DNA from: Escherichia coli
GTDB taxonomy: Bacteria; Pseudomonadota; Gammaproteobacteria; Enterobacterales; Enterobacteriaceae
Strand: one strand, 5' to 3'
Length of the DNA stretch: 410 nt
NCBI RefSeq assembly: GCF_003334305.1
Contig: NZ_QOWS01000079.1
The notes beneath the pieces were generated by a model. It saw nothing but the letters and a program-made list of their open reading frames with translations. It had not been told where the DNA came from and did no database searches. The position numbers and the translations under genes are program-made. Below, piece by piece: positions 1-410 of the stretch (positions are counted from its first letter, which is position 1; the number at the start of each line of letters is the position of its first letter).

Positions 1-410
1 CTGGATATCGATATCCCGTATGCGACGGACCCGGCAGGAAACCGGCTGCCGGACCCGGAACTGCACCCGGACAGCACCCTCACGGCGTGGCCGGATAACC
101 GCATCGCGGAAGATGCGCACTATGTCTACCGCTACGATGAATACGGCAGGCTGGCGGAGAAGACGGACCGCATCCCGGAAGGGGTGATACGGATGCACGA
201 CGAGCGGACCCACCACTACCACTACGACAGCCAGCACCGTCTGGTGTTCTACACGCGGATACAGCACGGTGAGCCGCAGGTGGAGAGCCGCTACCTCTAT
301 GACCCGCTGGGCCGCCGGACGGGAAAACGGGTGTGGCGGCGGGAGCGTGACCTGACGGGGTGGATGTCGCTGTCGCGTAAACCGGAGGAGACCTGGTACG
401 GGTGGGACGG
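1..410 (+). CDS. Rhs-family / YD-repeat protein, internal core fragment (5' and 3' partial); polymorphic toxin shell region
   Basis: Frame 1 (codons starting at nt 1) is open across all 136 complete codons, while + frames 2 and 3 contain stops (frame 2: TGA at 185 and 353; frame 3: TAA at 96 and 378, TGA at 138, 300 and 348). Translation: [137 protein letters not shown]. It carries YD-repeat motifs (consensus roughly xYxYDxxGRL) at nt 13-48 (degenerate, [12 protein letters not shown]), 121-153 ([11 protein letters not shown]), 211-246 ([12 protein letters not shown]), 289-333 ([15 protein letters not shown]) and 394-410 (WYGWDG, cut by the window edge). Codon third positions are strongly G/C-biased (CCG, CTG, CGC, GAC, TAC), as expected for a real high-GC coding frame. 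The match to enterobacterial Rhs core is from memory, not a database search. The specific paralog cannot be assigned, so no gene symbol is given. Confidence 0.85.

Follow-up and report, generated by a model that had tools for sequence, protein, structure and literature searches.

The GC-rich core of Rhs genes in Escherichia coli, whose chromosome is about 51% GC, has been described since the 1990s, and the pairing of such a core with its extension is a textbook feature of the gene family. The E. coli Rhs elements (Hill laboratory; RhsA–H; NCBIfam NF041261; clade I of Jackson et al. 2009) share with the locus described here a GC-rich core of approximately 1,256 aa with YD repeats, a hyperconserved core end followed by a variable, AT-rich tip and a small, likewise AT-rich ORF, and a nearby ISAs1/H-repeat element. 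Published accounts of Rhs elements describe a G+C-rich core with an A+T-rich core extension (summarized in Jackson et al. 2009, PMC2935791). A homologous YD-repeat shell is seen in the solved T6SS effectors Tse5 of P. aeruginosa (8cp6), RhsA of P. protegens (7q97), Rhs1/Tre23 of P. laumondii (7pq5), Tse15 of A. baumannii (8uy4) and the Rhs protein of Salmonella bongori (8qjb-d). In homologues of this kind, the shell encloses the C-terminal toxin, and the protein mounts on VgrG and self-cleaves at both shell ends (PMC8636562). The TcB/TcC cocoons of Tc toxins and the eukaryotic teneurins belong to the same YD-repeat shell fold family, but their delivery systems and domain contexts differ from those of the present Rhs protein.

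The window, by which we mean the whole 410-nt stretch of DNA that was analysed, lies in frame within the GC-rich core of a T6SS toxin gene of the Rhs family in E. coli. Many E. coli chromosomes carry it without a single mismatch in its 410 nt (100% identity). Matches were found in 3,720 of 5,426 complete E. coli genomes, nearly all of them chromosomal, at a median of 3 and up to 9 places per genome. In E. coli strain 504838 (locus L001), the window occupies nt 20001–20410 and covers, in frame, codons 909–1045 of a 4,251-nt gene whose 1,416-aa product is annotated ‘RHS element core protein’. The window peptide aligned to model positions 909–1044 of 1261 in NF041261 (RHS_core) with E = 4e-93. 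The full-length protein scored 2,634 bits (2,633.8) against this equivalog model, above its curated cutoff of 2,000 bits, with aa 1–1256 placed on model positions 1–1261; the TIGR01643 YD repeats gave 161 bits over the full protein. The original prediction had recognized Rhs from the letters and had made its main claim depend on an enterobacterial host. The RHS_core match and the identity to an annotated E. coli gene settle both points.

Frame +1 is the sole stop-free forward frame of the window, and its translation carries YD-repeat signatures. This open frame, the 100% match and the RHS_core hit define positions 1–410 (+) as an internal fragment of the Rhs element core protein gene with GC 0.649 and GC3 0.83. 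A degenerate YD-type repeat at 19–48 (+) was read from the translation; its residues D69, A71, G72, N73 and R74 (441-aa query numbering) are nearly invariant in a family alignment of 30 sequences. Three Pfam RHS_repeat matches, each weak alone, mark the YD repeats that follow. The first, at 124–168 (+), is matched by Pfam at aa 42–56 and by TIGR01643 YD_repeat at aa 43–57. The second, at 214–246 (+; aa 72–82), lies inside the RHS_core match. The third, at 286–324 (+; aa 96–108), contains Y159, D160, R164 and R165, which are invariant in the family alignment. Positions 394–410 (+) hold the start of the next repeat, WYGWDG..., which runs past the window as DRL in the L001 translation; G193, W194 and G196 are conserved there (alignment A1). 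As a whole, the window would correspond to about four YD-repeat β-hairpins in the C-terminal third of the Rhs shell. A repeat search of the window gave no meaningful direct or inverted repeats, and the window had no Rfam match.

Frame −3 is also open throughout the window, as part of a 228-aa shadow ORF (L001 19845–20531, −) that spans it entirely. An antisense gene was considered here and rejected as a compositional artefact. The frame is open because the sense codons TTA, CTA and TCA are missing from the window, and it was still open in 5,000 of 5,000 codon shuffles (100%). For annotation, the window can be safely labelled internal Rhs shell-coding sequence, and the antisense open frame is not a gene.

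The gene order at the locus is hcp, vgrG (identified by TIGR03361 with 628 bits), rhs and dsORF-h1, and a divergent tssB...tssA T6SS cluster adjoins. IS66/ISAs1 elements lie 3′ of dsORF-h1, followed by yafV, ivy, fadE, gmhA(lpcA), yafJ and dinB. This IS-ridden stretch (L001 22249–28867) includes ISAs1/ISEc1 fragments and an IS3 element that splits ivy. Its IS66/ISCro1 copy encodes the same three proteins as a prophage copy 1.5 Mb away (L003 4662–7277).

The N-terminus of the Rhs protein carries the Pfam domain DUF6531 at aa 47–123 (L001 17415–17645), and a Pfam search of the full protein gave no PAAR domain. A ‘KPAARQGD’ string is present at aa 4–11 (L001 17286–17309), but nothing downstream of it matches the His that closes the AARxxDxxxH motif (PMC8636562). 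The structurally solved T6SS Rhs effectors matched the protein with E = 1e-43 to 1e-121, and the window lies inside the aligned shell region. Tse5 (8cp6) gave E = 2e-121; RhsA (7q97) gave E = 1e-89 and aligned over aa 309–1082, window included. The solved effectors differ from the present protein in the N-terminal loading region, which is DUF6531 here, and in the toxin tip. Teneurin-like chains were detected at E ~1e-24, and the sequence similarity to them is distant only. By analogy with the published homologues, we infer a cage, its autocleavage and its delivery mechanism for the present protein: the shell would be the cage of a polymorphic toxin, loaded on the T6SS VgrG spike, and would hold inside it the variable C-terminal toxin of the same protein.

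The whole Rhs core (L001 17277–21044, 3.77 kb) has GC 0.635 and GC3 0.749. At the core/tip junction the GC content drops sharply to 0.360 in the 480-nt tip (L001 21045–21524), and the small downstream ORF, dsORF-h1 (L001 21539–21988), has GC 0.331. The same step is seen in K-12 rhsA (core 0.616, tip 0.403) and rhsD (core 0.633, tip 0.367). The statement that Rhs cores reach about 60% GC or more against a chromosome of about 51% therefore fits these genes well, with 61.6% in rhsA, 63.3% in rhsD and 63.5% in the present core against 50.6%. The description of the stretch as an atypical island stands for the composition; the unit itself is the 3.77-kb core of one gene, whose tip deviates in the opposite direction (36% GC). 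Neighboring T6SS genes are mildly elevated (GC 0.50–0.63). The vasI end of the T6SS cluster (L001 860–1400), with GC 0.64–0.66, is the only other stretch near the core value in the 40-kb neighborhood.

The core/tip boundary reads ...YITQDPIGL-(18)-...IDSLGL. Of its two demarcation motifs, the first is a canonical DPxGL. The second (L001 21015–21044) has Asp-Ser, giving DSLGL, whereas K-12 rhsA and rhsD have the canonical PxxxxDPxGL at this position. The Rhs-associated core domain TIGR03696 was found at aa 1179–1256, outside the window. No stretch of the core is better conserved than the one that holds the window (identity 0.886 to rhsD and 0.81 to rhsA). The whole core is only 77% identical to K-12 rhsD and 72% to rhsA, and we thus assign it to a third subfamily. 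The dsORF-h1 annotation and a second site beside an RhsE-type element would fit RhsH/RhsG. The tip has the string HEFAH, which fits HExxH, and weakly matches Pfam Peptidase_M91 ‘effector protein’ (E = 0.004); judged by these features, the AT-rich tip may be a metallopeptidase toxin. The presumed immunity ORF, dsORF-h1, had no NCBIfam match, and the PADLOC defence models gave zero matches for the Rhs protein and dsORF-h1.

Composition was compared with 300 kb of the same E. coli chromosome, taken as six 50-kb pieces (~6% of the genome; GC 0.506). The window contains 144 G, 122 C, 89 A and 55 T, so that 266 of 410 bases are G or C (64.9%; 64.88%). The recount agrees exactly with the hand count of the original prediction (266 of 410, about 65%). 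None of 7,260 overlapping 410-nt host windows reached 0.649 (mean 0.506, sd 0.050, max 0.624). In frame +1, GC1/GC2/GC3 are 0.67/0.44/0.83, and 113 of the 136 codons have G or C in third place, which confirms the strong GC3 bias noted before. A GC3 of 0.83 was reached by none of 1,473 windows of 136 codons in long host ORFs (mean 0.566, max 0.75). The flanking housekeeping genes fadE, gmhA, yafJ and dinB have GC 0.51–0.57 and GC3 0.57–0.66, and 32 ribosomal-protein genes of the same genome have GC 0.516 and GC3 0.491.

The third positions of the window are 48% G and 9% T, against 28% G and 26% T in host ORFs, whose GC3 is 0.56. The window over-uses CGG, ACG, GGG, GCG, GTG and ATA, and T-ending codons are avoided. 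CGG accounts for 47% of the Arg codons (13% in the host, 1% in ribosomal proteins), ACG for 67% of Thr, GGG for 38% of Gly, GCG for 83% of Ala, GTG for 80% of Val and ATA for 33% of Ile. A G-test of codon usage gave p = 1e-9 against the host and p = 1e-25 against the ribosomal-protein genes. At 0.37 (27th percentile), the CAI of the window does not stand out. The window is compositionally atypical for its E. coli host. The comparisons that the original prediction had proposed place it far outside the host distribution (GC and GC3 against flanking housekeeping genes) and show a strong difference in codon usage from the ribosomal-protein genes. The host is at 0.506 GC, and not near 65% with matching codon usage. 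The claim that the stretch is compositionally foreign, given an enterobacterial host, holds in GC, GC3 and codon usage.

In the type strain of E. albertii, an orthologue occupies the same site, in the order vgrG-rhs-yafV-ivy-fadE-gmhA-yafJ-yafL. The rhs core is 89.5% identical between the two species, yafV 87%, ivy-fadE-gmhA-yafJ 92.9% and yafL 88.5%. The divergence of the core (89.5%) is within the range of the flanks (87–93%). Because the locus is syntenic and its divergence is host-like, it predates the E. coli/E. albertii split. The present site, between the T6SS/vgrG genes and fadE, corresponds to position 1 (dnaQ–fadE) of Jackson et al. (2009, PMC2935791), who reached the same conclusion for it. 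The recent spread that had been associated with the GC-rich core is therefore not what we find at this locus.

The direction of compositional change was determined from polarized substitutions. A first test used outgroups that were 23–28% divergent and gave GC>AT:AT>GC ratios of 1.6–6.4. It was downgraded after a stationary simulation for such distant outgroups showed that parsimony alone gives ratios of 1.5–3, a null that only two of four lineages exceeded. We then used a close outgroup: three E. coli alleles of the same locus (94.6–100% identical) were polarized by E. albertii. The core showed 123 GC>AT against 67 AT>GC changes (p = 6e-5), some of which may be recombination imports in mosaic cores. 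The corresponding per-site rates, 0.052 and 0.050, imply an equilibrium GC of 0.49, against a current value of 0.64. In the flank fadE-dpaA there were 37 GC>AT and 32 AT>GC changes, with an implied equilibrium of 0.49 and a current GC of 0.53. At third positions of the core the ratio was 2.05; the stationary null had its median at 1.22 (P = 0.006). The contrast between core and flank in the GC>AT:AT>GC ratio was not significant (Fisher p ~0.1). The polarized substitutions of the core in the three alleles gave no sign of a GC-favoring force. The core is out of equilibrium and is evolving under the usual substitution spectrum of its host.

We consider it probable, at roughly 0.75, that the GC content of the Rhs core reflects an inherited GC-rich legacy in the course of slow amelioration, joined to an exchangeable AT-rich toxin/immunity module. 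The core family would have got its composition in a GC-richer background, or by import from one, before the E. coli/E. albertii split; that this ancestral background was GC-rich is suggested by the published homologues. Since the split, descent at this site would have been vertical, with copying of the core from site to site inside E. coli. The core would now be decaying slowly toward host composition through the ordinary substitution pattern of the host. The AT-rich tip and the downstream presumed-immunity ORF would form a separately acquired, exchangeable module, and the separate module would produce the sharp GC step at the PxxxxD(P/S)xGL junction. The foreign origin mentioned in the original prediction is a point that we infer from the compositional disequilibrium, and no donor lineage was identified.

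Compositionally atypical genes of the kind treated by Lawrence and Ochman under ‘amelioration’ are usually read as recent imports. Such genes resemble the present core in that their GC, GC3 and codons are distant from those of the host and drift toward the host equilibrium. The usual recent-import reading fails for the present core, whose residence predates the E. albertii split. The locus has been at the same site since before the divergence of E. coli and E. albertii, yet is 13 points above host GC. It is thus a calibration case, in which strong compositional atypicality need not mean recent transfer. Against an inherited legacy stands the type of the third-position bias. The core is G-ending and T-avoiding (G3 0.47, C3 0.29, T3 0.14), and both window and core make excess use of the rare codons CGG, GGG, AGG and ATA. 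Most GC-rich proteobacteria prefer C-ending codons, unlike the G3-rich, ATA-using core. A similar G3>>C3 pattern is seen in the Rhs cores of E. albertii, Superficieibacter and the Burkholderia loci L057, L066, L067, L072 and L077. The Burkholderia cores are only ~30% identical and thus no more than a lead to the GC-richer background.

The GC- and G3-rich synonymous pattern could instead be actively maintained, either by GC-biased conversion among recombining cores or by selection on mRNA or DNA. The multi-copy state of the cores described above would suit such a process, as would their mosaicism. At 99% identity or more, the window was found in 904 E. coli records and the whole 3.77-kb core in only 9, and the identity to the E. 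albertii orthologue falls from ~0.93 to 0.76–0.83 over aa 496–765. These patterns indicate that Rhs cores are mosaic and recombine. At the same locus, core diversity within E. coli is also ~3.7 times that of the flank fadE-dpaA (~0.05 against 0.014 polarized changes per site in L001/L086/L089). However, the polarized changes show a net loss of GC, the two per-site rates are equal, and the implied equilibrium of 0.49 is identical to that of the flanks. Because the changes decay toward host composition, the inherited legacy is favored, and active maintenance appears unlikely.

The comparison across hosts bears on maintenance as well. It comprised 76 homologous loci, one genome per species, obtained by an exhaustive representative search, alignment and a genome scan. 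This replaced a word-indexed homologue search, which had returned only E. coli and E. albertii proteins. Total flank GC served as the proxy for the host, in place of flank long-ORF GC3, which is contaminated by shadow ORFs in high-GC genomes. The window-homologous segment was mostly at 0.57–0.69 GC against flank GC of 0.48–0.71 (slope 0.37, r = 0.49). For GC3 the slope was 0.65. In almost every moderate-GC host the segment was richer in GC than its flanks (+0.02 to +0.12); in high-GC hosts it equalled them or was lower. The compression to ~0.6–0.65 GC is a further point for active maintenance. A point against it is that several enterobacterial Rhs cores are at host-like GC, namely those of Citrobacter youngae (L012), Trabulsiella (L016) and Superficieibacter (L024). 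They fit what Jackson et al. (2009, PMC2935791) noted, that rhs composition goes with the genome and not with the clade, and this also speaks against maintenance.

The same compression leaves some room for a family-intrinsic pull of the kind that active maintenance would bring about, in which the G-ending, T-avoiding signature is a state toward which cores are drawn in any host and not a foreign fossil. If true, it would explain why the segment stays at ~0.6–0.65 GC in hosts of 0.48–0.71 GC. The three host-like cores mean that the protein family does not force high GC, and we regard such a pull as unlikely. Two loci show the opposite anomaly to E. coli: in Pseudomonas sp. RIT-PI-AD (L050) and Massilia glaciei (L076) the Rhs core segments have GC 0.46–0.49, far below flanks of 0.60–0.64, and GC3 0.39–0.49.

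It is very improbable that the window belongs to a mobile island (plasmid, phage or ICE) acquired in recent E. coli history. The IS66, ISAs1 and IS3 elements directly downstream would be in keeping with such an island, and the core family is missing from ~30% of complete genomes. In other strains, moreover, the same core type (96% identical) and an identical dsORF-h1 protein occur at a second chromosomal site (L087 14001–18724; L088 14001–18727). This site lies between yncH and pptA/nhoA/narZ, in tandem with vgrG and an RhsE-type element (dsORF-e4), and an ISAs1 (H-repeat) element is again found 3′ of the core. RhsH was reportedly mapped to the yncH-pptA/narZ site by Wang et al. in 1998. From the shared core type and dsORF-h1, the core has been copied between loci within E. 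coli. Against a recent island stand the E. albertii synteny and the host-like divergence, and carriage on plasmids and phages is negligible. As evidence of mobility, the searches were essentially negative: 18 of 72,556 plasmid records matched, of which 17 were non-mobilizable and several megabase-sized, and phage matches were limited to three tiny unannotated fragments. In the allele L089 (18299–18808), which occupies the same site between vgrG and fadE, the tip is a different one and dsORF-h1 is replaced by a sel1 repeat protein. This swap exemplifies how the toxin/immunity module undergoes C-terminal displacement.

High GC as a by-product of YD-repeat amino acids (rich in Gly, Arg, Asp, Pro, Thr and Tyr) is hardly credible. 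GC1 and GC2 of the window slightly exceed their host means (0.59 and 0.41), and both vary little across hosts in the homologous segments, as the by-product would have it. However, of the GC excess of ~+0.126 over host long ORFs, codon positions 1, 2 and 3 contribute +0.025, +0.011 and +0.090, so that ~70% of it resides in synonymous third positions. Recoded with the codon usage of the host, this peptide would have 0.544 GC instead of the actual 0.647, and only a small share of the excess can thus come from amino-acid composition. Homologous segments of similar protein composition span 0.46–0.74 GC. This decomposition effectively refutes amino-acid composition as the main cause.

That the host genome is itself ~65% GC and the window unremarkable in it has next to no chance of being right, given the 0.506 GC of the host sample, the identity to E. 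coli chromosomes, and nearest relatives in high-GC hosts that are only ~30% identical in protein. Fragments of enterobacterial-type cores, 68–77% identical, also appeared in Firmicutes assemblies: one on a 2.9-kb contig of a Sporosarcina MAG (L023), and one on a 463-nt contig of Terrisporobacter (L053; coverage 0.79). Both are probably contamination or mis-binning.
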